Below, piece after piece: positions 1-21,200 of a DNA stretch of 64,000 nucleotides. The stretch's first letter is position 1. Each line of letters opens with the position of its first letter. This DNA is from Blasia pusilla. Lineage: Eukaryota. The translations under genes and the position numbers were made by a program. The notes below the pieces were generated by a model that did no database searches, had not been told where the DNA came from, and was given only the letters and a program-made list of their open reading frames with translations. Location: contig CM114271.1 of assembly GCA_050084515.1 (NCBI GenBank), forward strand, positions 868,001 through 932,000, in the 5' to 3' direction.

Positions 1-498
1 CATGTTGGGTGAGCACGGCTCCAAACCCCAACATGCTCCAATCGGTATGCAACTAGAAAGGACGCCACTAGTACAAAAACTCCTTCCCGTGAGGATGAAT
101 GCCCCAAAATGTCATCTTCTGCCTGTCCTCCAATCTGATAGGCAGCTGATGGTATGCGGCTTGCCAATCCAACGAACTGAAGACCATTGCATACCCAATC
201 GCATCAAAGATCTCCTCAAGGGTGGGCATGGCATACCTATCGGACTTCATCTGCCAATTGATAGGTCGGTAATCTCCACACATCCGTCTATCCGTCTAGT
301 TGCCATGCACATCCTTCTTGGCGGGCATGGCAGTGGCAGATGCATACTCTCCATGCGACATCTCCACTAGTCTTGCTCCAACCAAGTCATGGCTCCTATT
401 GTGAATCAGAGCCCTCTCCATGTCACTATACCTGTAGGGTTGTCGGAAGATTGGCGTGTCACTCGATAACTCAATGCAGATCCCTACACCCTTCAGTG
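1..498 (-). mobile_element. Inverted, internally deleted Ty3/Gypsy pol fragment (RT N-terminus joined directly to RNase H start), second copy of the family at 500-6925
   Basis: ORF 68..283 (MCGDYRPIN..DRYAMPTLEEIFDAIG) is Gypsy RT and is the reverse complement of about 3660-4100. Bases 1-66 are the reverse complement of about 4615-4680 (RNase H start). The two parts are joined across a GGCG microhomology. Confidence 0.85.
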
Positions 499-790
499 GC
501 CATATTGAGGAACTTACTACTTTAGGTAAGTACCATTTTGAGTATATGATCGACTTACTATTTTTGGTAAGTGGCCCTTGACCTCCTACATCAGGTCAAG
601 AGCCAAGGAGGTGACGTGGGAGAATAGGTTACCATGGAGAGAGCTTGGGAGAGGGGAGGGGTATACCTCAAGGAGAGAGAGCTTGAGAGCTCATTCTCTC
701 TTTGTTGAACCTCTTGGCATGAGGCGGCGGAGTTATGGTCCCTTGCCTTGTGAGTGTAACCCGAGCCTCTCATTAGGAGAGTGGGTTCGG

Positions 791-1293
791 TGCGCGTCTC
801 ACTACGACATGTGGCGCAATTACGCCTATGTTTTCTTGACTTATTGCCTGTGTCCGCAGTACAGGGGTACCAAAGTTCCCTACCGAGGGATATTTTGTTG
901 TTGGGGGCGCTGGACTTAGAGCGGGTAGGGACCATTGATTTGGTCATTGTCGGTTGGCCATGTCAGGGCCAATCGAGTGTTGGACGAGGCAGCGGGTTGG
1001 CTGACACTCGGTCTTGGTTGTTTTGGGAGATGTTGAGGGTCTTACGGCAGTTGCAGGAGCACCAGTCTCGTTCTCCATCCTACATTCTGGAGAATGTGCC
1101 GATCTTAGGAGACTCCAGGTCACGGGTCGTGACGAGTGCTCATCAGGTGCTCGCATGGATCGGCCCAGCAGTGTTCTTGGATGCGGCGAGTGTAGGTTCT
1201 AGAGCCCATTGCCCGCGTCTATGATGGACCAACTTGGTGCCCCATGCGGTGTTATGGAGGGCGTATGCGAGAGTGGAACGCCCCTCCCCTTTG
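791..1293 (+). pseudogene. C5 cytosine DNA methyltransferase (DNMT3-like) domain, catalytic half (motifs IV, VI, VIII)
   Basis: DLVIVGWPCQG (motif IV, catalytic PC), RSWLFWEMLRVL, YILENV (motif VI), DAASVGSRAHCPRL*WTN (motif VIII; TGA at 1222-1224 where TGG is expected). Motif I (FxGxG) is not in the window. Confidence 0.85.
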
Positions 1294-1410
1294 TTGACAT
1301 GAGAGAGAGTGCACACCTTTGAGAGCTATGGTGTGAGATGGTGTAGAGAGAGATTGGATCTTACTTTACAAAGAGAGAATGAGCTCTCAAGCTCTCTCTC
1401 CCCATACCCC

Positions 1411-1437
1411 ATGCTGATGCTCTCGGGAGCACCATGT
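1411..1437 (-). promoter_or_regulatory. Putative primer-binding site of the Gypsy element, inverted
   Basis: Minus strand reads ACA|TGGTGCTCCCGAGAGC, i.e. the LTR terminal ACA followed by TGG, complementary to a tRNA CCA end. tRNA identity not verified. Confidence 0.55.
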
Positions 1438-2862
1438 AGCTTGCTGATTTGTATTTTTACAGATGTTACATTTTCGTTGGGAGAAATCAGCGCGGGAGCG
1501 CTGCCGAATTTTGTGTAGGAGAAAGAGACATTGGGCTTTACGACATTCCCTCTCAGTTTTTACTGAAATGTCTGATATTTTTTTGTGCTGGCGTAGATCG
1601 TGAAACTGTGCACGTTGTGCAACAAATAGTGCGCAATTTGGAGTTGCGAGCAAAAAGTTATGGTCAATCTTGTAAAGCTGCCATTGCTAGGTGATTTTTA
1701 GGGTTAAATTGTGCAAACCCTAAATCAGCCGCCACACCGGCGGCGGCCGTCGCCATCATAGTCACCGTCAACGGTCAACCGTCACCGTCGACGGTCAACT
1801 GTCACCGTCACCATCAGCGGTCAACCGTCACTGTCAACGGTCCACCGTCCATTGTCCACCCTTTGGGTGCCATTGCCGCCATTACGGAGTGGAGGGTCTT
1901 CCACGACGTTCGTTGATTCCTTGACTTGCGTCGCCACCACGTACTTTGTTTTGGCCGTCACTGTCATCGCAGTTTCTTCATCAACCAGTGATGGCAGATG
2001 ACCTCCGATTATGGTGTTTGAGTTTTGATTTCATGCTGTTATGTTGTGATTGGTAGCCGCTCGACGACGATCGAGTATCGTCTTTGTGGCGCTGTAAGCC
2101 GCGCGCCGCCGATTGTTGCCGCTTCGTGGCGGACCGCACCGTCTCGATCGCGGAGCCGCACCGTCATTGTGGAGCAGAGTGTGGGATTATTATTGATTGA
2201 GGATGGTATGCCGCCGAGTTCCGCATCCCACCATCGAGGGCCGTGCCGTTCGTAGCCGTTCCGTGCCGCCTGCAACGCCGCACCGTTCCCCTGGGACCGC
2301 ACTGTCTATCGAGGAGTTTTGAGCAGCATCAGTATGGGAGGAGTATGACTTGCTGATTGGAGGAGTTGTCTCCATGATCGAGTTGGGGTCGAGATTTGCA
2401 GTTGCTGAGGAGCGACATCGACATGTGTTCAAGTTACCCATTCTGGTCCTTTACCCTCCACGTGTGAGGGATTCTGGGATTTATTTGGGGATATTGGGTG
2501 TGTGGATGCTGAGAGCATCATTTATGTATGTGGTCTAGGGGACATAGACCTGTGTGGGATGTCCGGAGTTGAGGGTAGGTTGTTGATGAGATGAGCCTGG
2601 TCGATTTGCCTCACCACGCCGCGTGTTGCCGCACGTTACACGTCTCGGGGAGAGAGAGTGTGAGATCGAGGCGTGGAGGCTCTACTATGACCCACATTAT
2701 GTGTCATGGATGGAGCCGTTCCCAGATGAGGAGGAGGAGTTAGGAGACGCTACTGCCTCTTCCACTAGTGACGTTTTAGGAGGAGTCACTCACACGGGAG
2801 CAGTTGCACCGTCTAGTCGGGTTTGTCCCAGGTTCAACCCTGTGGTTGAGTTCTTTGCTGAG

Positions 2863-3200
2863 TAGTGGATTCCATTCTGGATCCAGGTCGTCAATCACAG
2901 GCAGTGAGGCACGATGATCGACCACCGCTGACTGTGGTCAACAGGGTAGGCAGGCCGCGGGCAGCCTTGCCCACGTTTGTGAGTTTTCCCGCTTCCTATG
3001 CATACAAGGAGGCCGAACCTGGCTTGGTTTGGGATGACCAGGTTCAGCGGTTGGTGGAGCCCAACGCCGACGAGAGAGAGCGAGCGATGGGATTTCCCAC
3101 AGGAGTGACGACAGTACCATCAGTGTCAGAGGCATCACGACGCCATGTCTTGGGTCAGGCAATGGACCTAAACTGCTTGACATGGATCCTCAGCTTGGGA
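2863..3200 (+). pseudogene. C5 cytosine DNA methyltransferase domain, C-terminal half (motifs IX-X), upstream of RT
   Basis: EPNADERERAMGFPTGVT (motif IX, resembles DNMT3 ExERxxGFPxxYT) and SRRHVLGQAMD (motif X). Joining 1293 to 2863 gives a continuous frame ..ERPSPLLVDSILDPGR.. Confidence 0.82.
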
Positions 3201-5303
3201 GTGGCTGAGCAGCGTCGTATGAGATCGCGACAGATCACAGCGGTTGCGTTGGTGAGCCCCATGCCTACCGAGACGATGGAGGCAGTGGCTGGGGGCGAGA
3301 CCCGAGGAGATCTACGCACCAGGGGAGATTGGGAGAGACACCCTTGGACTTCTTCGGATGTTTTGAAGGTACGCAAGGAGATGATAGCCACAACATCGAG
3401 CGTGGTTTCGGGCACTGCACGTGGAGGAGATCAGAGTTTGCAGTTGGCTGCAGGAGAGTGGCAGAGTGTTGTTGTTCGAGACGGGGTTGCACTATAGCAA
3501 CCACCGATACCCGCGCCGGAGAGTCCTACCGTAGTCACGATGGAGACTTGGGAGCCAGATATGGGCCCTAAGTTGACAGGAGGAGAGCGGCGCCGAATAC
3601 ATCAATTCCTCAAGAGCTATAGGAGCTGCTTTGCGGTTACCATGGAGGATTTGGGTACGTTGAAGGGACCGGGGATCCGCATTGAGTTGTCGAGTGATAT
3701 GTCGATCTTCCGACGACCCTACAGGTACAGTGAATCCTACTCTGAATCAGAGAGGGCTTTGATTCAGAGTAGGAGCCAGGACTTGGTCGGAGCAGGACTA
3801 GTGGAGATGTCGCATGGGGAGTATGCATCTGCCACTGTCATGCCCGCCAAGAAGGATGTGCATGGCAACTGGACGGATAGACGGATGTGTGGGGATTACC
3901 GACCTATCAATCGCGATTTAAGTCCGATAGGTATGCCATGCCCACCCTCGAGGAGATCTTTGATGCGATTGGTCATGCAAAGGTCTTGATTCATTGATTT
4001 ATGAGCCGAATACCATCACCGCCTATCAGATTGGAGGACAAAGCGTAAGACGGCATTTTGGGGCATCGATCCTCACGGGAAGGATTGTTTGTACCGGTGG
4101 CGGTTCTTACCATCAGGTTAAAGAACGCCTCGGATGAGTTTTAGAGGGTCATGGATAGGATCTTGGCTGATGTCCGGATTACGCTAGGTGTTATATTGAT
4201 GACATCGTAGTCTTTAGCGCCACGATTGAGGAGCATGAGCAACATCTAGAGGAGGTGTTTCAACGATTGCAATTACATGGGTGAAGCTACATCGAGGCAA
4301 GTGCAAGTTCTTCTACGACCAGATTGAGTACTTGGGTCATACGATATACCGGGGCCTTGGTGTTCAGCAAACGAAGGTAGAGGCTATCTCACGCATTCCA
4401 CGCCCTCTGAGATGTGAGCCGTGTTCGGCGCATTCATGGGATTGGCAAACTTCTATCGGCGATCACGTCAAAGGGATTGGTGATTATGAAGCCGCTCACC
4501 TTGCTGACCAAGGTGGATCACGAGTGGCACTTTGGGGGATAAGCGAGGAGCGAGCATTTGAGTTGCTCAGGGACAAAGTTGACATCCGCACCCATCTTGA
4601 GGAGACCGATCGGGGGCGTCCTTTCGATTGCACCTGATTGGAGCATGTTGGGGCTTGGAGCGGTGCTCACCCAAAGATGATGATGAGGGTAGAGAGTTCG
4701 TGGTGGCTTACGCTAGCCGCTCGAACAACGTTGCAGAGGCGAAGTAACAGCTCATATGAGGGTGAGTGCTTGGTCGGTGTGGGTGTCGCGCATTTCAGGT
4801 GTTACTTATTCGGCAACCCTTTACCATCATCATCGATCATCAACCCATGAAGTGGTTGATCGAGTCCGACAAGCTTACAGGGAAGCTTGCGAGATGGGCT
4901 CTGTTGTTGAAGGAGTATGATTTTCAAGTGGTACATAGACCTCGGACGCTCAACCAGGATGCAGATGGGTTGAGTCGTAACCCATGCGCAAGTCGGCCGA
5001 GATGCGATCGACCAGCTCGATGGCATGGAGAGTGATGAGGAGTTGGTGCCAGGATGGCACGCGTCCACCTATTTAGGCATGTTGGCTATGGAGAGCCGAG
5101 TGTGGAGACCGATGGCGAGGTCTAGTGGAGAGTCCTTGGATCCCGAGGCCAGTGAGGACACGACAAGTGGCCGAGATATTCATGATGATGGAGTAGTCTT
5201 GGAGTACCTTCGTACTGGCAGCGTTGAGAACATCGTGGATGCTAGAGAGCGGGATCGGATCCTATAGCGGGCCAGACGGTTCCGTTGGGAGGGGACACAT
5301 GTT

Positions 5304-6617
5304 TTGAGTGTTTGGGAGGATGGCAGAGTACGCGTAGTGCCACATCTTTCGCAGAGAGCACGACTAGTGCAGCATGCCCATGAGGAGTTGGGTCACTTTG
5401 GGGTGAAGCGGACGTACAGCTTGCTCCAGATTCAGTATTGGTGGCGAGGCATGCAGACTGACGTTCAGCAGTTTGTTGCCAGGTGCATGGTGTGTGATCG
5501 GGTCCGAGCATCGTTCAATGCTCCGACTCCACAGTTGCATCCATTACCGATCATGGGCTTAGGGTATAGATGGAGTTTGGATTTTGCAGGACCTTTGCCC
5601 TTGACGGGCGTCCGCGATCGTTATGTGTTGGTGATGGTCGAGCACTTCTCGGAGTGGATCGAGTTGGTTGCATTGCCTGAAAAAGCGAGTGAGGGAGTAG
5701 CTTATGCCTTCCTTGACAGAGTGTTGAGTCATTATGGCGCACCGGCTGAGGTGTTGACAGACCAGGGTACCGAGTTTCGCGGTGAATTCCAGGCCTTGTG
5801 TGATCAGGCGCTGATCAACCACCACCGACGGTCGCGAGATCATCCTGAGGCGGATGGATTAGCGGAGAGAGTTGTGCAGACGGTGAAGAGGGGTTTACGC
5901 AAGTTTGGCTTGCAGAGAAGTCACCTAGGAGATTGGGACCTCCAGTTGCCATGGTTGGCGATGGGATACAGATTCAACAGGCAGGCATCCTTAGCGTCTT
6001 TTTCACCGTACTTGCTACTTTATGGCCGAGAGCCAGATTTACCTGCGGCCATTCGTCGAGATGCTGGTGAGGTGCTTGACCTTGATGACCCAGATGTATG
6101 GGTGCGAGCATGTTCTCAGAGGGCTGAGTTATTTTGGAGAGTGATGCCCATGGCGTTCGAGAACTTGGCGATTGCACAACATCGGGATACGTTGAGGTAT
6201 GCGACTATTCGGGGTGGTGGTTATCGACCAACTATCCGGAGGTTTCATCAGGGAGATTATGTCTACTTGCAGCAGATGGCACCGACGACATTGGATGTGA
6301 CTGTAGGGCGCACTATCCTGAGAGTGCGTGACATTTTGCCATCAGGTGTTCTCTTGCCGGAGGGACGCGATGGTATGGTATGGAAGGACCATGTGCGTAA
6401 TTGTGCACCATGTCACCTTCCTAACATTGATGGTACAGTAGATCCGAGCTTAGCAGTAGTTCCTGCAGGCTTGCGTTGTATGTTGTGTGGTTCTGCCCGT
6501 GGTGCGACCACAATGCTAGTCTGTGATGGGTGTTTGAGAGGATGGCATATGGCATGTTTGACGCCACCTCTCACTAGGGTTCCTCAGGGACGATGGATGT
6601 GTCCCAGATGTATATAG
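5304..6617 (+). CDS. Gypsy integrase (HHCC + DDE) with C-terminal PHD finger; open remnant of pol
   Basis: HAHEELGHFG..CMVC; DFAGP..DQGTEF..GLAER; terminal CMLC..VCDGC..WHMAC..WMCPRC is a C4HC3 PHD finger (about 6477-6611). Confidence 0.9.
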   Translation: MSVWEDGRVRVVPHLSQRARLVQHAHEELGHFGVKRTYSLLQIQYWWRGMQTDVQQFVARCMVCDRVRASFNAPTPQLHPLPIMGLGYRWSLDFAGPLPLTGVRDRYVLVMVEHFSEWIELVALPEKASEGVAYAFLDRVLSHYGAPAEVLTDQGTEFRGEFQALCDQALINHHRRSRDHPEADGLAERVVQTVKRGLRKFGLQRSHLGDWDLQLPWLAMGYRFNRQASLASFSPYLLLYGREPDLPAAIRRDAGEVLDLDDPDVWVRACSQRAELFWRVMPMAFENLAIAQHRDTLRYATIRGGGYRPTIRRFHQGDYVYLQQMAPTTLDVTVGRTILRVRDILPSGVLLPEGRDGMVWKDHVRNCAPCHLPNIDGTVDPSLAVVPAGLRCMLCGSARGATTMLVCDGCLRGWHMACLTPPLTRVPQGRWMCPRCI

Positions 6618-9600
6618 AGTAGGTAGTTCTACATTCCGACTTGTGTCTGTGACATGGATGACAAGGAGGCGACTAACGATGGGGCCACATGAGCATCCGG
6701 CCTTCTTGCTCTTAGCGTCCGAGAGATGTATGTCATGGTAGGTAGGGATAGATGGCTATCTGGAGTTAGAGGGACCTAACCACCAGCTAGGGGGGCGATT
6801 GGAGATATTTTGGTACTTCTTGTCTCGTTGTTTGGATGCCATGAGTTAGCATGGGATCATGCGTGTTTGTGTGTGTGTTTGGTGACAGCGATGTATGTTG
6901 TGTAGCGATGTGTATGCGCACGATACCACTAAGGAGATCTTTTCTTTGGTTTCTTATGAGATTCATATAACTCACTAATAATATGATAGCAATATGTGTT
7001 TATCATATACAAATATTTTTTATCATATTATTAGAAAGTTATATGAAATCATTATATTATTTCTATATTACTTCTTCTTTTGTCATATCATATGCCTTTC
7101 TAATCCTTTACAAATTTACTCTTGAATTTATCATATTAAAATTTCTAAGACATGTAGGGCTAGATCAAGAATCATTCGCAAATTTGTATTCAGAGGTTGG
7201 GAAGGATTATGTCCTTTTACATTTGGATCTAGGTGATGATTTTATACAAGTTCCATATGTGATGATTATCAAGACCATAACACTTTATAATCTCATTAAT
7301 ACATTTCAAGGAGATAATGATGATAAATGAAGTGATTTGGACTTCTTGATTGGTACAACCATTCCTTTGACAAATAATAATACAATGGATGTTATTATTG
7401 TGTATGTCTTTTTTTGTTTTATATATATATCCTTGATGTACAATTATGGTTGAAGCCTATCTTTTGATTGTCTAAATGGGGGACCAAAGGGTAAGACAAC
7501 ATGAGGATGACATCTCCATGACTCGGTGTAGCTTTGAGTTTATTTTAGGTTTGTTGATGTTATGTACAACAACTCTTGTGTCCGGTATATTATCCACAAA
7601 ACTCTTAAATACATCCTTGTTGTGGTATGCTAAAAGGGTTGCCATGACAAATGCTAAGAAACAAGTATATTCTTGTCTCAAACTGCACTTTAGATCACTT
7701 ATTCTTTCAATGTACGTGTTGTTGTCATTGTTGACAAAATCGAGAAGATTCCAAGTGTATTGAGCTACTCATGCGATTCTCCGTTTTGTAGTCAAGGGCT
7801 TCTATATATGTTGATGAGTGTAGCTTCATCTACATTCCCAATGATACTTTCTCATCTTAAGATTGGACTAGTGGTCAATGGTAAGGGAATATCTTATTAC
7901 GTATCGATTATTGAGCGAGGTTGACTCTTACCCTTACGCATGGGTGCAAAATTTTCAAAGTCTCATTATCTCAACTCCTATTGTAGAGACCAAATAACAT
8001 TGCATACAACGTTAACTAATATCCATGGGATAAAAAACTCAAGACTAAAGATGGAAAATTTTACACGCATTGGGAAGTTAACCTTTTGTATACGTGTGTG
8101 CCTGAACTTATTATGGAATATAATAGCCAATGAAAGGAAAAGTAGCAAAGTGCGAGCATCATTTTATGAATATTTAAGCAAATCGTGTCAAATTTTCCAA
8201 ATTACAATTTTCATAGTTGAAAACTAGTAAGAATTGACAAACCCAATTTGAAAGAACATGGTTAAAATATCATTCAAAAGACATAATGACATGACAAAGT
8301 AAAAATCATGCAAAGAGATACAAAACATGTTATGAATTTTTCGTGTAATAATTTCGCAATGCTAATATAAGTTGTCATATCATGATTGTCGAAATGTGAA
8401 TGTGATCTTGATTAAAACTAGGTATAAGCTAAGATATTTAGACTATCTTTCGAAATGTAGTCCAAATTAGTGTTTTGTGCAAACATAACATGGAGTAGTG
8501 TGAACACATGCAATGTTCAAAAGTGGCTCTAAAAATTTGCAAAAATCATAAAAGATAGTACGCACATGGTGCAAAATGAGGACACATTTGCATTGATATG
8601 CACAAAAAATTAACATTGATCAAGTAGAAACATTATGTGGAGGTGTCTAGATTGAAATGCAGAAAAGAGACATATTTAGTTCAATGGGCCTTAATGGAGT
8701 AACACATTTTCTCATTTTCTTTCCTCCTACAAAAACAAAGATCCACAATTTCCTCATACTTGATCAACACTGTTCATGCACAAGACCACCACCAATGAGA
8801 CATAAAATTAGGGCATGAGTATACGATAATAGGAGTATGCATGATGACACTTGCAAGACTACTCGGAGAAGTAAAGATTATGAATGCAAAACTAGACGAA
8901 AATGATAGCGAGCATGCAAAAGATTATGAGGGATGAATATGATTGCAAACCCAATGAGAATTGCAATGTTATCTCATGAGAGTAATGTGCAAATGCTATA
9001 GGAAAAGAGTGCAAACGCAAAAGTGGAGGGAAGGCAAACCATGTGTGCAATGAAAGATTTACCATGTGAATACGCAATGGGAGTACCACGAAAATAAAAC
9101 AAACCAATGATAATAGAGGAAATCATGATGTAAAAGCCCATTGCGCCGCCACTTAACTCCAATAGGGAAACAAATTTCCACTTAGTCTTGAGAGTTTAAG
9201 TTATGCATCAAATGATGAGACAAAAGACAACTTCCACGCCATTACTAGATTGAAGAGAAGGAAAATGTGTTTAAAGGTCGCTTCCTTAAACATTGTAGAT
9301 GGGCAATTAACTACAAACTACAAAATAAGGTTGTTCAATCTGTCTCCACTCCCTAACTAATTACTAATAGGAATGTCCGCTGTAACGTCACATGATCACT
9401 AATGCAATAGGACGTTTCATAAACATACCGTAGGGTCAGACATCTGAGTATGTAATTTTTTATATGGCCAAATGCGGTCCGGGGGTGTCATATGAGGTGG
9501 ACACTCATCTCTTTCAGATGGATGTCTAAGATCACTATGGGTGTATTTACCACATACGCCTTAGAGATCACGTAATCTATGAGGATTGAACTTCCTTCGA

Positions 9601-10279
9601 GATAAATGGAAGTTGTCCCTATTTTATGGTCAAACGCTTGAAGGCTGTCAAAAAATTTACGTCCTCCAAGTGAGATGCCCTATTTTTGTTTCTCAAGACT
9701 TTACCTTACATACGGGGCGACAAGACATGAGCAATTACTTAAGAATGCGGGGATCATCTTGCCTTGCCCCAATCCTTAAACCATATCTAAGACAAGTGAT
9801 TGGATGTCCAACATCAAAGAAAATAAGGAGGCGCATCAATGGCAATGACAATTGGGACACTTTCCTTGCTTTCTTGCATTTAGAAGGGACGTGGCTTGGG
9901 ATATGACGGATGCCATACATATTCCGAGAATGTAGATATCTATATTATTAAAAGAGGACGGGGTTTGGAGAACCCCTCCTATGGTGTCGAAACGTAAGCG
10001 TTTTGAAACCTTCCCGTGTTGACACAAGTAAGGGGCCAAAGATACGATTAATTAAGTGATAAACGCTCATTTTTTCACTCGCACAACGCGTAGGAAGCAT
10101 ACTAATAGGGATTATAACTAGTGTGCGACCCTTTTCCCCACCCCCACTCAATAAGGGTGGGGAAGATCTACTCTTTCTAAAAATACTTAGAAAATAAAAT
10201 AAAATGTATTTTAAAAATTATGCTACCAAAGGCATAACACCTCTTACAAATCTCATTATATTTGGGACCCTAATCACAT

Positions 10280-10420
10280 GATTAGAGGATTTATACGGAC
10301 GGATCCTATAAAAGAAGTCACCGAACTAGAGGGCCTATACGTACGGATTCCATAAACGAGTCACGGAATCATAGGGCCTATACGGACGCATTCCATAAAA
10401 GAAGTCACGGGATTAGAGCG
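10280..10420. repeat. About 44-bp tandem repeat, 3 copies
   Basis: Unit approximates TAGAGGGCCTATACGGACGGATTCCATAAAAGAAGTCACGGAA, repeated three times upstream of the CTF7 gene. Confidence 0.75.
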
Positions 10421-10689
10421 CGTATGGGGCCTTTGGAGGTGCCCTGTGGAAGTAGAGGAGCTCCCGTCCGTCCCCCTCCACTCCACTCCCACTACGGGAA
10501 CACTAAATTTGAACGGACGGGATACCTATAATTCCAACAACAATTCGCCTATAGATCTCCGATTTCGACGCGCTACTGCTGCGAAATCGCTCCTTCTCCG
10601 TCGCGCAACCACTGCAATCGAGGTACGCAATTGCAGAAGTGGATGGTATTTCCGGCGATCAGATCGCCTTGAGAGAACACGTAGAGCGA

Positions 10690-10738
10690 GATGGAGAGAG
10701 AGAGAGGGGCTGAAACTTTGAACTATTGAGAGAGAGTG

Positions 10739-10782
<44 letters not shown>

Positions 10783-10923
10783 TGAAGGAATTGATTTGTT
10801 GTCTACGGGGATCCAAAGGACCATGGGATTTTGATGAGAGAGAGAGAGGGGATCCAAAGGACATAAAGAAGGAGAGATCAAGAGATCCAGAGGAATCAAT
10901 TGTTTTTGAACACTCTAGAGCAT

Positions 10924-10956
<33 letters not shown>
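10690..10956. repeat. Interrupted (GA)n microsatellite cluster in the CTF7 5' region
   Basis: GA runs at about 10693-10706, 10742-10777, 10835-10847 and 10926-10956. Confidence 0.9.
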
Positions 10957-10959
<3 letters not shown>

Positions 10960-11028
10960 ACGTCTCGAAATTACAGGAATTGGTCGCCCAAGAAAACACG
11001 GACTGAGACTGTGGGGCAGGCGATACCA

Positions 11029-13225
11029 ATGATGAGCGAGTGGAAGAGTCTCACGGGATCGAAGAAGACTGTCAGCCCCAAGCCCGGACGCATTACAGGG
11101 CAATATTTTCTCGACCTAGGTCAATCGGACTTCTCTTACTCCACGTGTTCTGTTTGCGGATTGCTGTACGCCCGTGGTCACGAGAATGATGAAAAGGTTC
11201 ACAAAGTTTTCCACAGGAACCGCACTCGAGGCATTCAGTTCAAGGTACAAAGTCGCGGATACCGCATTGTTCCTATCAGTAGTCCTGGAATCCTTCACTT
11301 TTGCTCCGCTTGTTCTTAACTTGCCCATGTTATCTTCTTGGGAAGGTGAATGAGGCTACGTCGGAGATGCTATGTTTTCTCGCTCCTGACTTCTGCCTGC
11401 TATGGCGAGTCAAATTGCATTATGTGAAACTCGTGGAGCCTGCCAGTTGAACTCTGTAGAATATGTATAGAGTTCGGGGACGTTACTGAAGATTTCATAC
11501 TGAGTAGATGCAACTTCTCTGCTGTTGCCTTTCTGCACAAGAACTGTCAGTAAATTGACTGTGCTAGTATGCATCTAAGATATGCAGGGTTGGAAGAGTG
11601 AGCGGGTCATTAGCAGAGAAGAAGGCACAGAAACCCGGGTTGTACTCGTACTTCCGGAGGATGCACTCCATCAAGCGAAGGTTTGTGGTCTTGTGTCTTT
11701 TTGCACTCAAAAGTATTGTGACACCTGTCTTTGGTGCCACACTTGTTTGGTACCCTTGGTAGTCGGATTCCCTGATATGGTCTTAACTTCTTGGGGCAAT
11801 GTCTAACTGAATTCAGGATGATCTTGACATAGTTAGATTCAATTCCTTGCATTTGATTTGGTGTGTTGTCCTGTGGAGCGGATGGTATCCTGAGAATATA
11901 GGTTGAAGGCTGGGAAAAGTGAGTTCGTAAGTCATTACAAGTTTGGCTGCATGACCTTGATCGTACATAAATATCTGCTACCTTCTAGCCTAGGTGTATG
12001 CCTGAACTATGTTTATTCCATTCTTCTCTCGTGTCATTCAGGTGAAAGAAGTGGTTGACGTTATGGAAGTCGAGCTAGGGCTTAGTCCTGGCTGGCTGCT
12101 TCAGAGACCATGTAAGGTAAGTGGTCGGGTTTCTTGTCCAGCATATCTCCCGTGGAGAACATTGGACTGTCCGCATACTACAACCAGTGGAGAGTATATC
12201 AATTCTCTTCTCAGGGGAATTAGGATAACTTTGCTGATTATTTTATGTCATGAAGGGAGCTGATCTGTGTGCTCGTACACAGGTTTACCTCTTCATTTCT
12301 TCTTCAAAGAAGATTGTAGGTTGTGCAATGGCCGAGCCAATTAGACATGCCTTCCGAGTGATGCCTGTCAAACAGCAGAAACATAAGGAAGATCAATGTG
12401 ATGGAGAAGGGATCAGACTTTCAACAGCTTTCAGGGAATGTCCCCATGGTTCTGTGCAGGTTGATAAGAGAGTGTCAGGACCCCCGATTGCCGCAGAAAT
12501 TGCTATTGAACAGATAACAGGAGCAACAAGCTCTATAGATATTGTGGCGATGGGCATGAAAGGGGAGGATGATCGTCATCAATCAGCTACTATTAGATTA
12601 GCCAACACTGAAAGATTAGTTAATTGTGGTGATTCGCATGTAATTAGGCCAAATCATGTACAGATAAAAGAGGAAAATAGATCTATCCCCAGTTGTACTA
12701 GTAATACCGTGGTAAAAAACCAATCAAATGTGGGGGGAAAATGTGGACGTATGATTGTACAGCGGGAGGATTCTCCGGGGCTGGGAAGTCAAGCAGCCAA
12801 TGTCATGCTCTTCGGGAATGTAAAGTTTATTCGAGAAGTGGCACCTAGAAAGAAACTGCGGCAGGAACGAACACAGGAATTGGGGAGTGCAATTATGTGT
12901 AGTAAGACACCTGTGCCAGCCATTTGTGGTGTACGAGTCATTTGGGTCTCTCATTCTGAAAGGAGGAAGGGCATTGCCTCTCAACTTATAGATGCCATGA
13001 GGTACATCTCTCGGTCTTGACTAAATTTGCTGTCATGCTCATATCTATCTTGGAGCTATATTTCCAAAATTGTCTAACTTCAAGTGCTTTCCCTGCAGGA
13101 GAACTTTTTGTCTGGGAATTGTTTTGGAGCCTTCTCAAATTGCCTTTTCCCAACCAACACCGGATGGGAAAGGATTTGCGGCACAGTATTGTCAAACAGA
13201 TGAGTTTTTGATTTATACCAAGTAA
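11029..13225 (+). CDS. CTF7: Cohesin acetyltransferase CTF7/ECO1; exons 11029-11244, 11588-11680, 12042-12116, 12283-13001, 13099-13225
   Basis: QYFLDLGQ followed by C2H2 finger CSVCGLLY..DEKVHKVFH; GNAT motifs IVGCAMAEPI, CGVRVIWVSHSERRKGIASQLID and IAFSQPTPDGK. All four introns are GT-AG and keep frame to TAA 13223-13225. The start ATG is the first in-frame one; an upstream exon cannot be excluded. Confidence 0.92.
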
Positions 13226-13339
13226 GGATTCTTTAAAGGGGTATATGATGTGTAACACCAGGAGCAACTGTGTGACCTTACTTCTTGTGGAACCCACAGT
13301 TGAATCGGGACTGCAGTCAGTCAAGAGTACAGGAAGCAT

Positions 13340-14125
13340 CCGGATCAGCAATGGGGGAGGGTCTGTGTCGGCTATCTCAATCGGCAACGGCAGTGTTCGA
13401 TCTAATAACTCCTTACAGTTCTGACACATCCAGACCTCCAAACAAAGAACAGGACTACAACGTCACAATCACACAGTGAGGTTATTCCCAGTAGCAGGGC
13501 CACACGACATCATGCTGTAGACGAAGATCTTGTGACTTCGCACTTGATGCATCAGAGGTATTCAACAGATGGATTGGAGGGTTACGATGATTGAACAGTT
13601 GACTTTTGGTGGTTGCACATGGGCCTGCCTTTTTCCCAAAGGGCTTTTGGATGGCTGTACAGAGGGACATATAATGGCCAGGATGTTGTAGTGAAATTTA
13701 GTCTTGAGAGGACCAAAAACAATCTTGATAGAACTCCATTAATGGAGAGCCAGTTTGCAAGTGAATTAACTATGCTTGCCACTGCAAACTTTCAAAATGC
13801 GGTTAGATTTGTAGGTGCATGTCAGAAACGTATTGTATGGTGGATTGTCACTGAGTTTGCCAAAGGGAGGCTCATTTCAATCATTCTAAAGTAGAAGGTC
13901 ATCAAGACATGTTCCCTTGAAGGTTGTTGTGAGCAGACACTCGATGTAGGTCTAGGGATGGAGTATCTACAGAGTTTGGATATCATACATAGGGACATGA
14001 AGCATGATAGCTTGCTGATCACCACAGATGAGTCAATCAAAATTGCTTATTTTAGTGTCACTTCAATCGAAATACAAACGGAGGGCATGACCCCAGAAAC
14101 TGGAACATATCAATGGATGGCACTG
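13340..14125 (+). pseudogene. Raf-like STY13/STY17-type protein kinase pseudogene (first-exon fragment)
   Basis: SNGGGSVSAISIGNGSV N-terminal motif, [69 protein letters not shown] then a GTAAG donor. In-frame stops (about 13592 and 13892) and damaged GxGxFG/DFG motifs. Confidence 0.85.
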
Positions 14126-16049
14126 TAAGCTTTGGAATTCGGATGCTGCTTCACTGTTTCATAACTCCTTTCTTTCAGCTCACAGAGTTGGACCTTTCTA
14201 CAGTTTTGTTTTTTGTTTTAAATAAGAAATAACTTTAAGCCCTATATATTGACTAGTGATATGTTACTCTTGGGGCTGCTCGTACTGCCTTAGTGCAGTG
14301 GACAGATTGGTATAGGAGTATATCCTATTATTGAGTTGTAGTGAATGCTTTGTTGGTAATGGCATGTGACTAACATTGCTAATTCATGGACTAGCTCACT
14401 CTAAATAGGTGGAACACGGGGTAAGACATCACATCCGAGCATGAGTTCTACATTGAAAATAGTCATGTTTTGGTCATTGAAGGAGGTCTTTGTCTACTCC
14501 TTAACAAGGATCCTGTAGCTGCTGATGGCCTTTAACAAGTTGGATTTTTCTGTGGGATCTGCTGGCTATATAGTTTATGTTTCTAAAATTGTGGGTGTTA
14601 GAGTTATTCTGTGGCAGCTCACATTTTCGTCCTTAGAAATGTTATAAAGTTTGTTTAACTTATATGATTAAGAACCTGAACAAAATGGACTCTTGTTTAT
14701 ATCCTGCATGCTATATTGGAGCTTTTCTCTCAAAATTTGATTTTGTGAACCTTGATGATACATCAGTGGTTGTCAATTGCAGGACTAAGAGGGCTTTAAG
14801 TGGATTCTCCACTAATAATTCAAAATTGTTGTGCAGGGAGGTGATGACCTGGTTTTACCCCCTCAAGTGGTGAACATGTTGGAAGGTGTGGAAGTGGAAA
14901 TAGTGACAGTTCGCCATGCCAGGTTTCACTGTGGGTGTATGATTCATCCTCTATCAAGTGACTGAGTATCATTGTTTCACCTCCTGCTTTCGTGTCTTGG
15001 AACTTGTTTCGTACTGACATTTGGAAGTCCTTAGTGCACTATTAATGAACCTTAATGGTCTAAGAATGTCTCATGTATTCTATATGTTCCATTCAGAGAT
15101 ACAATTGAAGAAATTTTCTGTTTTTCCAATATCTCAGTTTTCCAATGGACGTGGGTTCCAGATACCAAAGGATTTGCATGGAACTCTAGTTCTTCCATAG
15201 AGAACTATCCATGTTCTTTCTGAAGAACTGGAACACAGAGCTGGTTTTAGTATGATGCCATACTCTGTCATGTGCTCACTCACTCGTGATCTTTTCTAGG
15301 TCTATCATGTCATGGACTTCTCATTTACTGGTCTATCATGTCATGGACTGTTTTCTTGATTTACGTGAAGAGGATATGAAAGCCTTGTCACAATTTTGAT
15401 TTTGTAAGAAGTTTTCTTTTGAGTCATTGAGACGGGGATGTCAAGACGCAACTTTCAGGATTGTCTAGAAATATCATTGCCATGCTTTGTTATGCGTGGG
15501 ATAAGAGGAACCCAACAAGATGTTACCTATGAAGGAATTCACTTAGTTAAGAAGAAGGTCCTCTTCCTTTCTTGACATGATGATAGTTTGTGGAAGTAGT
15601 TGGTATCAGTGCCCGGGAAGGCTGGTGGAGTTCTTGTTGGAAATTCATGTTATAAATCAGTTTCATGCATGTATCAAAGAACTCTTGTGATGCACACACA
15701 GGAAGTGTTCCTGCATCATGTTAATGTTGTAATGAGACTTAACACTAAGACACTCTCAGCTGGTAGACTACAAAACTGCCAACCTACACTAGTCACGACC
15801 CCTAAGAAAACGGGACACTATTGAAATGATCTGTGTGAGCCCAGTAATCAACCAAGAGGGGAACAGTAGTGGCTCCAGGAGAAGGCCCGTTAGGAGTGAG
15901 CTTCCAGTATCGTGAATAAATGCATTCCTTCACTGTCCTAATATCTACAGGACGAAATATAAATTGGAAGCAGGTCTGATCAGATTTATATTAGTCATCA
16001 CACAATGTGCAGCTTCATACTTTTATTGGAACCCTAGTCCCATGTACAA

Positions 16050-17540
16050 GTCATTATGCTCCGTGTTGGTAGAGATACGAAGCACCATGCTTTCAGTAGT
16101 GCAGGGTTGAACTTTGGCTTCTTTGATTCTATGCCATACAAAGTGATAGTGAATGTCCACTAGTAGGAAACTACAGGGACAAAGACAATACTGAGACAGA
16201 GGACGCTGCTGCAGGCTCAATTCTGAACTCTACTAACTCATTGAGTCACAGGAGGCATGAGGCCATGTTTAGGCCAGCTCCCCGCACGATTTCACCCTCT
16301 CAACCTCTCTGTGTTTAGAAAACCCACTAAAGACTCTTCAGCCAAAGGGTCATTGCAACACAAGCTATGTCGAGGTCATACAGAAGGCATACAGGTAGCA
16401 AACAAAATGAACAGATCAGAATATGGAAGACCTTGTTGTTGCAGCATCCTGTAGGAAATTGAATGATTCACAATGGAGCTGATCAGCACTGGCTGGACAG
16501 GGCAACAAGTTGGGGACATATACAGTAGAGGCTTGGACGAGAGGGAGAGACTCGATATTCACATGTTCGCATACTCATCGTTAGTGCTTGAGAAACAATA
16601 CTCTGGAGCTCCAAGTCATACAATCATTACTGCGTAGACGACAATTTCTGAAGTTGATTTCCTTGAATCAAAACCTCCTGGGTCCAAGATTGGGCATGTA
16701 TTCAACTGCGTCGGGTAGGTCCCGTCTGGTGCAGATCATAGCCCAACAGCACCCATTTCAGCCTACTTCACCCTGTTGTCATCAGTCTCAGGGCAGTTCT
16801 CTTCAGTTTGTTTCTTTTCAGTTTCCATAGAGCTGTAGATTTGGGTTGCAATCCTCCATCCGAAACTTCTCATGCCTACACAGATAGATCTTCTCTGATC
16901 ACTTCAAATCCACCCTTCTTGTTTATTTCTTCTGATTCCTATACCAAGGCGCTGCTTGATTTCTCAGAGGTCTGTCATTCCAAAGTACCGACACAACCTT
17001 GTGGAGGACGTTTTGATCATTGCTACAATGAATGAATGTACCTGTGTGCAATTACATTGAAATCAAATTGAAACAGGTAGGAATCAAGTCTTGAAAGCAG
17101 AGTCTAGAGGCTTGTTTCAAATTACTGACTCTTTTCGGATGCTTAGAATCAACCAATACTCCGGACATCTGTAACAATACTTCCTCTTGAAGTACACCAT
17201 TCAGAAAGGACGTCTTCAAGTACATCTGCTCGACCTGTGAGTCATAACGAGCAGCCAGAGCCGGTATTGCTCTGGTGGATGTGATCCTAGCTACTTGTGA
17301 GAAGGCATCAGTGTAGTCAATTCCATGCACTTCTCAGTAACCCTTTGCAAAGGAAGGAGCCTCGCGTACCTCTCAACAGTGCCATCAACATTGAACTCGT
17401 TCTTTAAGACCTACACTTCACATGCTTTTTCCTCCCTTAAAGAGTCCACATATTATTCTTTTCGCATGATCTCAGCTCACTCTATACTACTTCTGCCTTT
17501 ACTTGGCTTCTGACTATTTTGGAGGATCAGTAGGGTCATT
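16050..17540 (-). mobile_element. Old degenerate Ty1/Copia RT-RNase H remnant
   Basis: GIDYTDAFSQVARITSTR..VEQMYLKTSFLNGVLQEEV (17052-17330) and VDIHYHFV (about 16140-16165) are decayed Copia RT and RNase H motifs. Confidence 0.75.
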
Positions 17541-17585
17541 CCATTAGTGATGTACATTAGTAGGACATGTAGTGGGCCCATAACC

Positions 17586-18271
17586 TGAGAAAATGATTGA
17601 CCAGCAGAAGTATCTCCTTGTACAAAGTCAGAGCTAGCATCACCTAGACCATCCATGATTTCAGCTTGTACACAAACAACAAGTCAATTCCTATCTCTAT
17701 TGCCAAATCAGAGCCCTACCATGATGTGACTCTTCTTACTATCTAAGAGATACTAAGAAGGATTTTACACAACCACACCTTGCACTCACACTACAGGTCC
17801 TCACATGTCACCATCTCAGAGATCAGACATGGCTCACCATTGAGCACAAACAATCTCCATCAGCATACTAGACAAAACAACCTGCCTTCCAGTGAGGCTC
17901 TAGCAAGCACAGCAATTAGTCTCAATCTCCTCTTCTTACTCTCTGATCACTCTGCAGCAGGACCAAGAGCCTCAGGAGTCCTCACCAAAATTGTGCATCT
18001 TTGTAGAGAATTGGCTTCTGCTCTCTAAAGAGAGACATTATATACATGAGGGTGAGCACTTCTGGTCCTTGGATCTTCTTGAACAGATCCATACCCTAAA
18101 TAACAGATGGTGGCTAACCCTAACTCGAGAATTGCCCTAATTCAAGGTTACCCTAAAAAGATAGAGGAACACTAAGTTATCTCTAGCTAACTAAATTAGT
18201 ATCCAACTAAGTTAGTATCTGACTAACTACTTTTAGAGCATGACTAAACTAGATATTAACAAATTTCAACA
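17586..18271 (-). repeat. Copia 3' LTR (about 686 bp)
   Basis: Near-identical to 22356-23039; preceded on the minus strand by the PPT. Confidence 0.93.
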
Positions 18272-21200
18272 CTCCCTCTTAATGAGAGTTTAGAGTAATG
18301 CCCCTCATAGATATACACTTTCTATGTTTGTCCTGTGATAGAGGTTTGGTCAGGACATCAGCTGCCATATTCTCTGTTGGACAGTAAACCAAGGAGATTT
18401 CTCTTCCTATCATTTCTCTTACAAAGTGATGTTTGATGTCAATGTGTTTTGTTCTAGGATGATGAACAGGATTTTTGCTTAATGCAATACTTCCTTTGTT
18501 GTCAACCTGTAGGGATGTAGGAGTCATCTGTTCATATCCAAGATCATTCAATAAGCTCCTTAACCAGATCACCTCCTGAGCAGCAAGAGAAAGCGCCATT
18601 ACTCTGCCTCAGTTGTAGAGAGTGCAACCGTTCTTTGTTTCTTCTGCAGCTGATCACCCCTCCACTTAACAAGAAGACATATCCACTTGTTGATCTTCTT
18701 TCATCGGTATCATCTCCCCAACTTGCATCTGAAAACCCTTCCAAGATTGGTCCATTTTCTTGATGCCTGTATTCCAAGTATGTTCTTGTTGTGCCACGCA
18801 AATATCTGAGTACTCTCTTCAGACATTTCCAATGTTCTATTGTAGGTTTGCTGGTGTACTGGCTAAGACACCAACTGGGTATGCTAAGTCTGCTCTGGTA
18901 CAGACCATAGCAAACATCAATGACCCTACAACACTTTGATATAGTGCTTGCAAATTGTCAACCTTTTCAGTTGAAATTCCCATATCTTTGCTGAGTTTGC
19001 AGCCAGGATCTAGGGGTGTTGATACAGGCTTACAATCTTGCATGTTGTACCTGATCAAGATACTCTCTATATACTTTTCTTGACTCAATCGAATCCAGCT
19101 CTCTTCCCGATTTCTCTCAATCTGAATCCCCAATAGCCACTTTGCTGGACCCAGATCAACCATCTCAAAGTTGCAACAGAGGTCTTTCTTCACTCTCTTT
19201 ACAGTGTCTAAGCTCCCTCCTAGCATCAGAGGATCATCAACATACAATGCTATGTACATAGTGGAGTCTAAGGAGTACACTCCTTGATCTGCATTGCTAC
19301 GTTGGAATCCTTTCCTGATCAGGTAAGCATCCATCTTCTCATACCAGCATCTAGGTGCTTGCTTTAGGCCATAAAGGGCTTTCTTCAAGAGACACACCTT
19401 GCCTGGATGAGTATATCCATCTGGTACCTCCATGTAGATCTCCTCTTTGAGTTCTCCATTTAAGAATGCAGTCTTCACATCCATCTGTTCCACCTCCCAA
19501 TTTTGTTGAGCTGCTAATGCCAAGAGAACTCTAATGGATCCATACCTTGCAACAGGAGCAAAGGTCTCCTGATAGTCTAAACCAGCCTCCTGATTGAAGC
19601 CTTTTGCAACCAGACGTGCCTTGTACTTCAAGATCTCATTCTTTGGTCCCCTTTTTATTCTGAAGACCCATTTGCAACCAATGGTCTTTCTACCAGGTGG
19701 CAAATCTACAAACTCCCATGTCTCATTTTTCTCTAATGAGACCTTTTCTTCTGCCACAGCCTGCTCCCCACTGTTTCAATCATTCCTGCTCATAGCCTCA
19801 CTCAAAGAGTTGGGCTCTACAACTCCTTCTTCAATAGAATGAGCTTCGTTTATCCCCAACCTTTCTACAGGTTTGGAAATTCTTCCAGATCTCCTTTGCT
19901 CTGAGATCTCCTTGATCACTCCCTCTGTGGACTCATGTGCCTCTAGAACTTGCTTGGCTGCACTTCTCCTTTGGTACACCTTCATAGGCTGATCATTTTC
20001 AACATGATCTTCCTCTCTTACACCTTGGGTGCAAGTATCTAATCCTCCACTACATTCTGCAAGTGTATCCTTTGATACTTCCTCCTTATCAGCATCTTGA
20101 TGTGAGTTCGACACTACAGGGATGTTTACAGGAGTGACAACAGAAGTGATTACTGGCATCACTCTGGTGACCATTGACTCTTTGTGCTCAGAGTCTTTCC
20201 AAAAACTCTTCTCATCAAAAGTCACATCATTGCTTGAATTGCCTTGCAGGTTCTAGGATTATACAACATGTATCCTTTCAGCCCTTCTTCATACCCAACA
20301 AATATGTACTTGTCAGCCTTTGCATCTAGTTTCCTCCTTTGTGTATCAGGGGTGAGGGCATAGCCAACACAACCAAACACTTTCAATCTAGAAATGTCAG
20401 GTTTCTTACAGACCAACACTCTTCTGGAGTTACATTCTTCAAGGCCGCTGTGGGACTGATGTTCCTCAGATAATTCGCTGTCATGATAGCTGCTCCCAGA
20501 ATTCTTGACCAAGCTTGGCATGTTGCAACATGCTCAAGGCTTTCTCATGCAAGGTTCTATTCAGCCTTTCAGCTACTCCATTTTGGTGGGGGCTGTCACG
20601 TGCCGTAACATCTTTTAATATCCCCTTGGCTGAGAGATATGCTTGAAAGTCTTTACTTGCATATTCTCCTCCTCCATCAGACCTAAGTCTCTTCACTCTT
20701 CGTTCAACTTGCCTCTCTGTCATGTTGACAAAGATAACAAATTTCTCTAGAACTTGAGCCTTGCTGCTTATCAGGTACACAAAGCTCTTTCTACTCTTGT
20801 CGTCCACAAATGACACAAAATAGCGTGCTCCTCCTAGTGACTTTACAGGCATTGGTCCACACACATCAGAGTGAATCAGGTCCAATAATCTTTCAGACCT
20901 GTTAAGTGACCTTCTGGGAGCGGGTGACTTGTGAGCTTTCCCTTGCACACAAGCCTCACAGAACTCAAGCTTCTGTGACTTCTCAATCTCCACACCACAT
21001 GACATTCCTTGCAGAGCTCGAATCTGTGTCCGATAGGTGCCCCAATCTGCAATGCCACAGATTCAGCAAGCTCCTATTCTCAGTGAGATTTACCTGCTCC
21101 TCTGGATCACATTCCAGCAGTTTGAACAAATTTCCTTGTACCACTCCTCGGCACAAGACTTTCCCGTTTCTCTCAAGTGTGCAAGTCTGGTTTGAGTTCC

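Follow-up and report, generated by a model that had tools for sequence, protein, structure and literature searches.

What directs a retrotransposon to its landing site, and why some retrotransposons carry a DNA methyltransferase (DNMT) of their own, are open questions, and both are raised by a Ty3/Gypsy-type element near one end of the 64,000-nucleotide stretch of Blasia pusilla DNA analyzed here (contig CM114271.1, positions 868,001 to 932,000; this whole stretch is called the window, and positions are given within it). A preliminary description of this DNA held that the integrase open reading frame (ORF) of the element closes with a PHD finger in the place where chromoviruses carry a chromodomain, and suggested that the element might use the finger to choose integration sites or might have rebuilt the logic of host DNMT3 from separate parts. 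We find that the finger is real, is a long-kept part of the integrase in a clade of green-lineage elements, and in active elements probably serves to bring the integrase to histone H3 tails.

Translation of positions 5268 to 6617 of the plus strand produced a 449-residue integrase frame, open from stop to stop, of which the last 46 residues are CMLCGSARGATTMLVCDGCLRGWHMACLTPPLTRVPQGRWMCPRCI, followed by a TAG stop. The C4HC3 PHD finger, recognized by Pfam, alignment, structure model and Foldseek, occupies residues 404 to 448 (6477 to 6611, plus strand), with the codon for C404 beginning at nucleotide 6477 and that for C448 finishing at nucleotide 6611. Only Ile449 (6612 to 6614) and the TAG codon (6615 to 6617) follow, so the polyprotein finishes one residue past the finger, and in close relatives, too, the frame ends 1–15 residues past the last finger cysteine. 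The predicted zinc ligands are C404, C407, C419, C422, H427, C430, C445, and C448, and their spacing, C-x2-C-x11-C-x2-C-x4-H-x2-C-x14-C-x2-C, is canonical for a PHD finger. The Pfam search that had been proposed as a check matched PF00628 (PHD) to residues 404–448 with E = 1.5e-10 and 41.4 bits, above the curated cut-off of 24, and the match spans the whole model (profile positions 1–47 of 47). PHD-type models were the sole Pfam matches at the finger (PF00628, plus a weak match to PF23011), and within the integrase ORF Pfam gave no match to an ADD-type model and none to Chromo at E ≤ 0.01. An AlphaFold2 model of the whole ORF had a mean predicted local distance difference test score (pLDDT) of 79.6, with approximately 86–91 in the finger, and a model of the finger alone gave 85–92 over the finger, with strands at model residues 32–34 and 41–43. 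In a Foldseek search, the finger-only model matched 47 PDB chains at E ≤ 0.001, all among the matches listed being PHD fingers, and it lay within a root-mean-square deviation of 0.5–1.5 Å of solved PHD fingers over 45–49 residues at 36–50% identity. Positions 6477 to 6611 encode a complete, genuine C4HC3 PHD finger, the match being far beyond chance, and the preliminary description had both its coordinates and its motif exactly right.

The frame that ends in this finger (5268 to 6614, plus strand; 449 codons with no plausible start codon of their own; identified by Pfam, alignment and model) contains, all on the plus strand, the HHCC zinc domain of an integrase at nucleotides 5349–5510 (Pfam Integrase_H2C2, E = 4.9e-18), the DDE core at nucleotides 5565–5828 (Pfam rve, E = 1.2e-11) and an SH3-like C-terminal domain at approximately nucleotides 6258–6410, seen as model strands over residues 331–381. 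Both the HHCC residues (H38, H43, C73, C76) and the D,D35E triad (D105, D165, E200) are present and were invariant in 58 of 58 sequences of alignment A3, and the best solved structures matched by the whole-ORF model in Foldseek were intasomes, that of prototype foamy virus (PFV) at E = 1.8e-20 and that of Ty3 at E = 1e-16. It is the only integrase copy in the 64-kb window. The finger begins approximately 20 residues past the SH3-like domain, and a stretch of 210–217 residues separates the rve match from the PHD in the nine proteins that were measured. In chromoviruses, the chromodomain sits right behind the SH3-like domain of the integrase, and in Ty3 the C-terminal chromodomain of the integrase contacts a target-bound factor; the finger does occupy the chromodomain position, as had been claimed. 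Among integrases that lack a PHD, the nearest Atlas clusters scored 0.84–0.88, one of them with Chromo on 44% of its members, and are to be taken as leads, not evidence. Approximately 20 residues N-terminal to the finger, an N-C-A-P-C-H motif (residues 375–383, approximately nucleotides 6390–6416) is conserved in the family in alignments A1 and A3, with C382 invariant and P381 and H383 nearly so, and a histidine often stands 4 residues ahead of the first finger cysteine in the family alignments. This motif may form an extra small zinc site joining the SH3-like domain and the PHD.

A search of a 5.8-billion-protein collection at E ≤ 0.001 returned 355 matches of similar length and 290 longer ones, and the best 120 of each were taken as 240 homologs (P numbers, with P0001 the window ORF); a metagenome scan with alignment A1 returned 422 relatives, from which the best 80 loci were kept (L numbers), while a scan with the single protein P0132 found zero relatives. 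Hosts among the matches listed include Calypogeia fissa (80% identity), Marchantia polymorpha, Riccia sorocarpa, Sphagnum fallax, Haematococcus, Chromochloris, Pleodorina, Tetrabaena, and Klebsormidium nitens, whose proteins P0010 and P0028 are 50–53% identical to the window ORF (E of approximately 1e-146 to 1e-181) and have the same C-terminal PHD. The chromodomain family PF00385 is absent from the Pfam lists of the 240 homologs. One homolog, P0216, is labelled as a Spirochaetia metagenome-assembled genome, most likely through eukaryotic contamination of the bin. Judged by its sequence, the element is a Ty3/Gypsy retrotransposon from an old clade of the green lineage, and KnitGypsy-Dnmt3 of Klebsormidium is a relative of that clade. 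A FastTree phylogeny of 188 integrase-PHD sequences splits, with 97% local support, into a side of 65 rows, which holds the window together with the Klebsormidium row P0028 and a Calypogeia row, and an algal side of 123 rows.

Across the 240 homologs, 192 align over residues 404–448 and the other 48 are fragments that stop short of the finger. All eight ligands are kept in 182 of these 192, the 10 imperfect fingers mostly showing a change of Cys to Tyr, and in alignment A3 the ligands are invariant in 58 of 58. Of 183 family fingers located by pattern, 144 have the x11, x2, x4, x14 spacing. Most pairs are saturated at synonymous sites, leaving as usable for the ratio of nonsynonymous to synonymous substitution rates (dN/dS) only L007 against L008 and L009, plus three weak PHD pairs; between L007 and L008 (dS 0.8–1.6) the ratio was 0.04 in the finger, on 45 codons only, and 0.02 in both the core and the SH3-like part. 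Absence or degeneration of the finger in most family members, the outcome that was said to speak against the preliminary description, was thus not what was found. The finger is, rather, a selected, position-fixed integrase module of the clade that is functional at the family level. That it could instead be a chance pattern of cysteines, or a decayed remnant without meaning for the family, might be suggested by the fact that the copy surrounding it is dead, and yet this reading is refuted by the Pfam E value, the ligands kept in 182 of 192 homologs, the dN/dS of 0.04 and the confidently predicted fold, and we give it practically no credence.

Fingers that are broken show a recurring pattern. 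In the metagenome loci, the lesions are stops, Cys to Tyr, and Trp to stop, and across loci L002–L077 and proteins P0005, P0006, P0016, P0017, and P0025 they are mostly Cys to Tyr, Trp to stop, and Gln to stop, with the same pattern in P0027, P0035, P0102, P0105, and P0114. These lesions are G-to-A and C-to-T transitions, of the kind that would be expected in silenced copies under heavy methylation.

The state of the window copy becomes clear when it is set against near-intact relatives. In the metagenome locus L007, a first ORF of 1369 codons contains two weak matches, to a zinc knuckle and to an aspartyl protease (Asp_protease_2, E = 2e-4, which is below the cut-off), and a DNMT, and a second ORF of 1047 codons encodes reverse transcriptase (RT), RNase H, integrase, and PHD and finishes 13 residues past the finger; L008 has a second ORF of the same 1047 codons. 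The RT-to-PHD frame begins right after a stop codon (5083–5085 in L007, 4661–4663 in L008), which in L007 is in frame with the upstream gag-protease-DNMT ORF, an arrangement reminiscent of read-through gag-pol expression. DNMT and RT are fused within one frame in P0132 and P0213, where Pfam matched no protease at E ≤ 5; both proteins, in the order DNMT-RT-RNase H-integrase-PHD, are colinear with the window element. Against solved structures, the L007 DNMT matched DNMT3A, DNMT3B, and DNMT3C best (approximately E = 2e-7), ahead of the bacterial enzymes M.HaeIII and M.HhaI, and the methyltransferase of the family can be taken to be DNMT3-like on this evidence.

In the window, the N-terminal part of this DNMT3-like methyltransferase, with its GWPCQG and ILENVP motifs, lies at 781 to 1311 on the plus strand (Pfam, tblastn), and the ORF at 760–1224 matches PF00145 (C5 DNA methylase) with E = 1.9e-10. 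Residues 66–241 of P0213 correspond to nucleotides 781–1311 and residues 237–1489 to nucleotides 2862–6614 in tblastn. Because the alignment jumps from 1311 to 2862 without loss of protein residues, a 1.55-kb insertion (1312 to 2861, no strand assigned) splits the DNMT. Intact relatives lack any equivalent of the insertion, and the 57 bases at its start are common to a repeat of approximately 490 bp, here called repeat R. The insertion also includes a low-complexity stretch at approximately 1695–2000 that encodes repeated T-V-T-V-N-G-like peptides, and positions 1368–1401 are a 34-base inverted copy of 672–705. The C-terminal part of the DNMT (ERERAMGFPTG) and the linker to RT follow at 2862 to 3503 (plus strand; P0213 and L007 alignment), and then a degraded RT and RNase H region at 3504 to 5267 (plus strand), which was recognized by tblastn of the P0122, P0123, P0213, and L007 polyproteins, colinear from approximately 2862 or 3504 to 6611; Pfam found no RVT model in the ORF at 3498–3989. 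The 802 codons of 2862–5267 hold 16 in-frame stops, most of them within 3504–5267 and some probably arising from local frameshifts, and the 449 integrase-PHD codons hold zero. This uneven decay could reflect chance, frameshift artefacts or a chimeric copy.

Only residues 974–1140 and 1144–2404 of the L007 polyprotein are covered by the window, the first block within the DNMT segment at 781–1311 and the second from nucleotide 2862/2865. This copy therefore lacks gag, protease, and the beginning of the DNMT, approximately 970 upstream L007 residues having no counterpart in the window. Upstream of the DNMT, the 5′ segment at 499 to 791 (plus strand) is common to repeat R (94.5% identity to 35126–35418, with further matches at 54055–53802 and 57311–57021), and the 3′ non-coding end of the element runs from 6618 to 6921 (plus strand), of which 6798–6921 is also common to repeat R. 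No direct repeats or long terminal repeats (LTRs) flanking the copy were found in 1–20000, nor between its 5′ and 3′ ends with 7-base words. Abutting the 5′ end, at 5 to 495 on the minus strand, is an inverted RT fragment from a second copy of the same family (84.5% nucleotide identity to 3661–4102 and 88.7% to 4615–4674, with minus-strand tblastn matches to the RT of P0122, P0123, and L007). The window copy is dead, 5′-truncated, and interrupted, and its integrase-PHD frame is merely still open. Domestication of that open frame was considered and set aside: there is no start codon before residue 62, making a domesticated gene unlikely, and the surplus of upstream lesions shrinks to a marginal one when stops induced by frameshifts are taken into account.

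Repeat R itself is colinear with element positions 499–791, 1294–1368 (75 bases), and 6798–6921. It occurs at 35126–35618 on the plus strand and at 54055–53684 and 57311–56820 on the minus strand, with a weaker copy at approximately 38672–38795, and in the other copies the similarity extends approximately 35 bases further 5′ than the equivalent of position 499. Repeat R looks like a multiplied, non-autonomous deletion derivative of the DNMT-PHD element family.

Given a real and conserved finger, the question becomes what it reads. By sequence, its best PDB match was CHD4 (E = 8.8e-16), followed by PHF12, Drosophila Lid, and the first PHD fingers of KDM5B and KDM5A, the Lid/KDM5 fingers having identical spacing and scores of 54–56 bits; further matches were KAT6A, DPF2/3, KMT2C/D, ATXR5, PHF21A, BAZ2A/B, AIRE, WSTF, ORC1b, and UHRF1. 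By title, the structural neighbours found by Foldseek include complexes with unmodified H3 (BAZ2A, UHRF1, ORC1b), ATXR5 with H3, double fingers of the DPF type (including DPF3b) on H3K14-acylated tails, and two entries with a methylated K4 peptide, UHRF1-H3K4me3 and Ehd3-H3K4me1. The closest solved relatives by both sequence and structure are thus readers of the H3 tail, which bears out the earlier expectation that this PHD belongs with such readers.

The residues kept by the family point the same way. Near-invariant are an Asp after the third Cys (94%), a Gly two residues before the His (95%), the P-x-G-x-W ahead of the last Cys pair (99%, 94%, and 91%), the M-L-L strand, an aromatic residue immediately before the His, and the extended pattern L-x-P-P-L-x-x-V-P-x-G-x-W-x-C-P-x-C. 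The window finger has D420, P439, G441, W443, the strand M416-L417-V418, and G425 at the cage position. We take the Asp, the P-x-G-x-W, and the M-L-L strand to be the platform for Ala1 and Arg2 of H3, and the Gly to stand at the spot of the cage Trp of K4me3 readers such as BPTF and ING. It is this Gly at the cage-Trp position that places the finger in the non-cage class of PHD fingers, and its nearest solved relatives in that class read the unmodified H3 N-terminus. The C-D-x-C, the aromatic residue before the His, and the extended pattern just given are common to the window finger and the readers of unmodified H3 (first PHD of KDM5A, KDM5B, and Lid, CHD4/5, BHC80/PHF21A, first PHD of AIRE, BAZ2A/B, DPF2/3, second PHD of MOZ/MORF, ATXR5, UHRF1). 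The window finger differs from them in being fused to a retroelement integrase, and in its loop after the second Cys, which reads S-A-R-G-A-T-T and follows A-G-L-R ahead of the first Cys, whereas the KDM5B PHD1 loop is acidic.

From this evidence, we consider it more likely than not that the finger, in active elements, ties the integrase to histone H3 tails and steers insertion. The finger would bind the N-terminal tail of H3 on nucleosomes and thereby anchor the intasome in chromatin of one particular state. Landing sites would be biased as a result, most simply to chromatin without H3K4 trimethylation; in chromoviruses, the chromodomain does the same job. Such a role would be independent of the methyltransferase, in keeping with a subclade nested in the algal side (P0186/L072 and P0219/L074) that has no DNMT in either of the positions described below and has kept a perfect finger.

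Several observations weigh against this reading. The window copy cannot itself act, given its 16 in-frame stops, split DNMT and lack of gag and protease. The finger is intact in only 28 of the 67 metagenome loci that hold the region, which are mostly dead copies, and decays in them like the rest of the element. Variant fingers exist, that of P0213 being divergent and those of P0208 and P0217 ending in C-x2-H. The loop after the second Cys is net basic on the window side of the tree (mean +1.07; at least +1 in 39 of 55 rows) and acidic on the algal side (mean −1.98; −1 or less in 104 of 119 rows), and its sequence is variable within the streptophyte branch. In KDM5-type fingers, this loop gives acidic contacts to H3K4; in a sequence alignment, it is acidic in KDM5B PHD1 and basic or neutral in the window branch. 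Since the streptophyte loop is basic, the ligand preference of the finger in that branch may differ or may not be H3K4me0.

The basic and variable loop would also fit a role away from histones, in which the finger would be a structural zinc module for integrase multimerization or would have as its partner a nucleic acid or a host protein other than a histone, contacted for example via the loop. Some PHD fingers do bind non-histone partners, entries of the UHRF1 PHD with PAF15 and Stella peptides are among the structural neighbours, and the N-C-A-P-C-H motif may point to a bigger unit that contains zinc. On the surface of the finger, however, the residues conserved best (the Asp after the third Cys, P-x-G-x-W, and M-L-L) are those shared with fingers that bind H3 tails, and the top neighbours by sequence and by structure are all chromatin proteins. 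We consider a non-histone role improbable next to binding of the H3 tail.

Because the family also encodes a DNMT3-like enzyme, the finger might serve that enzyme and not only the integrase. The DNMT was labelled by precomputed Pfam in only 10 of the 120 longer proteins, and BLASTP with the family DNMT found it in 69 of the 240 homologs, many of the rest being fragments without context. It stands in two positions. On the 65-row side of the tree are all six rows with the DNMT before the RT (the window, P0132, P0133, P0213, L007, and L008), and the algal side has every one of the 47 rows in which the DNMT stands between RNase H and integrase, as well as 21 in which it probably does; a further 110 rows had too little context for the position to be scored. 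In the algal architecture, the DNMT is directly N-terminal to the integrase-PHD within one ORF; Pleodorina P0154 is an example of a DNMT between RNase H and integrase. The Marchantia proteins P0030 and P0097 are fragment models with pieces of DNMT, P0030 also with integrase-PHD. In the metagenomes, a DNMT is present in 24 of the 32 loci whose sequence ahead of the integrase is at least 3.4 kb long, 19 before the RT and 5 after it by a distance rule, counts that come from few samples, from loci that are not independent, and from a rule that mislabelled some rows; one of the five scored as after, L080, whose integrase is 75% identical to that of the window, has its DNMT match before the RT and is probably a rearranged before-RT copy. 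In several members with the algal architecture (such as P0163, P0172, and P0154), the polyprotein goes on for 350–400 residues past the finger. Three tails of this kind, 366–399 residues long (L059 10293–11402, L067 5247–6344, and L069 10636–11832), matched no Pfam family at E ≤ 1 save for one chance-level match.

Under a coupling of reader and writer, the PHD would sense the state of H3 and license or direct methylation by the element DNMT at the insertion or its surroundings, as a split analogue of the ADD-methyltransferase pair of host DNMT3; this would be compatible with a role in integration targeting. The ADD of DNMT3A, DNMT3B, and DNMT3L combines a GATA-like finger with an atypical PHD and a C-terminal helix, binds H3K4me0, and relieves autoinhibition of the methyltransferase, and the finger class here resembles readers of that same unmodified tail. 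The element family has both a DNMT3-like catalytic domain and a finger of the unmodified-H3 class. The two travel together on both sides of the tree (the 6 before-RT rows, and the 47 plus 21 probable rows whose DNMT follows RNase H), a DNMT being found in 69 of 240 homologs where many others are fragments and in 24 of the 32 metagenome loci with enough upstream sequence, and the algal architecture puts them side by side within one ORF. Structure-database matches of the DNMT to DNMT3 enzymes agree with the Dnmt3 described in the Gypsy element of Klebsormidium, as far as that account goes (PMC5890265).

Against coupling, co-occurrence inside one clade is largely shared ancestry, and the position of the finger is fixed relative to the integrase and not to the DNMT. 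In the window architecture, more than 1000 residues, with RT, RNase H, and integrase among them, separate the DNMT from a finger that sits on the integrase and not on the methyltransferase. In L007, the DNMT lies in the upstream ORF, with the weak protease match, and the stop before RT-RNase H-integrase-PHD means that the domains are probably on separate proteins. No ADD model was matched, and the finger is a single canonical PHD with no GATA-like part, preceded by an SH3-like domain and followed by the end of the ORF after 1 residue. Because the DNMT-less subclade on the algal side still has its finger, a coupling of PHD and DNMT is unproven, and we hold it to be unlikely, though somewhat less so than a non-histone role. 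The earlier idea of a rebuilt DNMT3-style logic is correct to the extent that the family does have a DNMT3-like enzyme; it falls short in that the domain is a plain PHD and not an ADD, that the DNMT is upstream of the RT and that a subclade manages without a DNMT, and the idea as a whole is unproven.

A more far-reaching version can be sketched, at the same low likelihood as the non-histone role. One ancient Gypsy lineage, ranging from volvocine algae by way of Klebsormidium to liverworts and mosses, would have kept a DNMT3-type enzyme and an H3-reading finger as a split reader-writer module through a reshuffling of gene order; the finger would pick chromatin lacking active H3K4 marks, the DNMT would mark the new copy or its surroundings, and the switch in loop charge would be a retuning to host chromatin. 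If this were true, each integration would come with an epigenetic state that the element itself had written.

Both components have precedents. In Klebsormidium nitens, KnitGypsy-Dnmt3 is a Gypsy element with a Dnmt3 in pol, and its authors place the capture of the enzyme in the lineage of K. nitens (de Mendoza et al. 2018, PMC5890265). The main text of that paper has 0 mentions of PHD, and its three text supplements have 0 of PHD or PF00628, figure images apart. As far as it is described there, KnitGypsy-Dnmt3 resembles the family reported here in having a pol of Gypsy type whose polyprotein includes a DNMT3-like methyltransferase, and P0028 falls on the window's side of the tree, a kinship read from the K. 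nitens proteins P0010 and P0028 and not from the published copies themselves; it differs in that the relatives reported here are also in liverworts, Sphagnum, and volvocine algae. The same paper gives it DIRS-like split direct repeats (A-coding-B-A-B) instead of LTRs (PMC5890265), and none were found around the window copy, which is 5′-truncated, or in the 9.3-kb L007 contig, which may be too short. Chromodomains direct the integration of Gypsy elements to heterochromatin (Gao 2008, as cited in PMC6673714), and the domain layout here is similar, with a chromatin-reader domain at the very C-terminus of a Gypsy integrase behind the SH3-like domain; the differences are that it is a PHD zinc finger with no Chromo match, and that its likely ligand is the H3 N-terminus as against H3K9me.

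PHD fingers have also been described in other mobile elements, including Gypsy-7a_cRei and REM1 of Chlamydomonas (PMC9940879), Chlamys Penelope-like elements (PMC8557442), CR1 LINEs (Kapitonov and Jurka 2003, cited there), and the Ginger1-9_HM transposase, which has a Gypsy-like integrase with Ulp1 and PHD (PMC2836005). For a PHD-carrying Chlamydomonas Gypsy element, intergenic insertion was 2.6 times that expected, and the authors raise targeted insertion as a possibility (PMC9940879). In the passages of these papers on such elements, a PHD in a mobile element is proposed to affect chromatin or insertion, and in Ginger1 the extra domains, PHD included, are C-terminal to a Gypsy-like integrase, as here. 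The legend for Gypsy-7a_cRei, in contrast, gives the PHD before INT, the other PHD transposons are separate element families, and the passages drawn on here describe no fixed integrase-terminal finger that is co-inherited with a DNMT. A full-text literature search, with most subscription journals outside it, found no description of an integrase-terminal PHD in a bryophyte Gypsy element or in one that carries a DNMT. Already in print, then, are the PHD as an accessory domain of transposons and a Dnmt3-bearing Gypsy element in Klebsormidium; new here, and a modest extension, are a finger and a DNMT3-like enzyme kept together over chlorophytes and streptophytes, the two gene orders, and the switch in loop charge.

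Elsewhere in the window are a Ty1/Copia-type element at 18547–21741 on the minus strand (RVT_2, E = 1.5e-76, with rve, Pol beta-barrel, and gag-pre-integrase matches) and a 411-codon frame at 60540–61772 on the plus strand with RVT_1 at E = 7.6e-12, probably a non-LTR or other retroelement. Two host-gene fragments were recognized, one with an ESCO-type acetyltransferase zinc finger and an acetyltransferase domain at 10960–13017 (plus strand) and one of a family 10 fucosyltransferase at 41349–41963 (minus strand).

With these results, the distribution of DNMT3-carrying Gypsy elements, in print for Klebsormidium, extends to land plants and chlorophytes, and they provide, in tractable bryophytes and green algae, a natural system in which a histone-reader finger on an integrase is co-inherited with a DNMT3-like enzyme. 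If the finger steers integration, it would be a second, independent solution beside the chromodomain of chromoviruses, and if it also guides the DNMT, the family would represent a transposon assembling a reader-writer pair.

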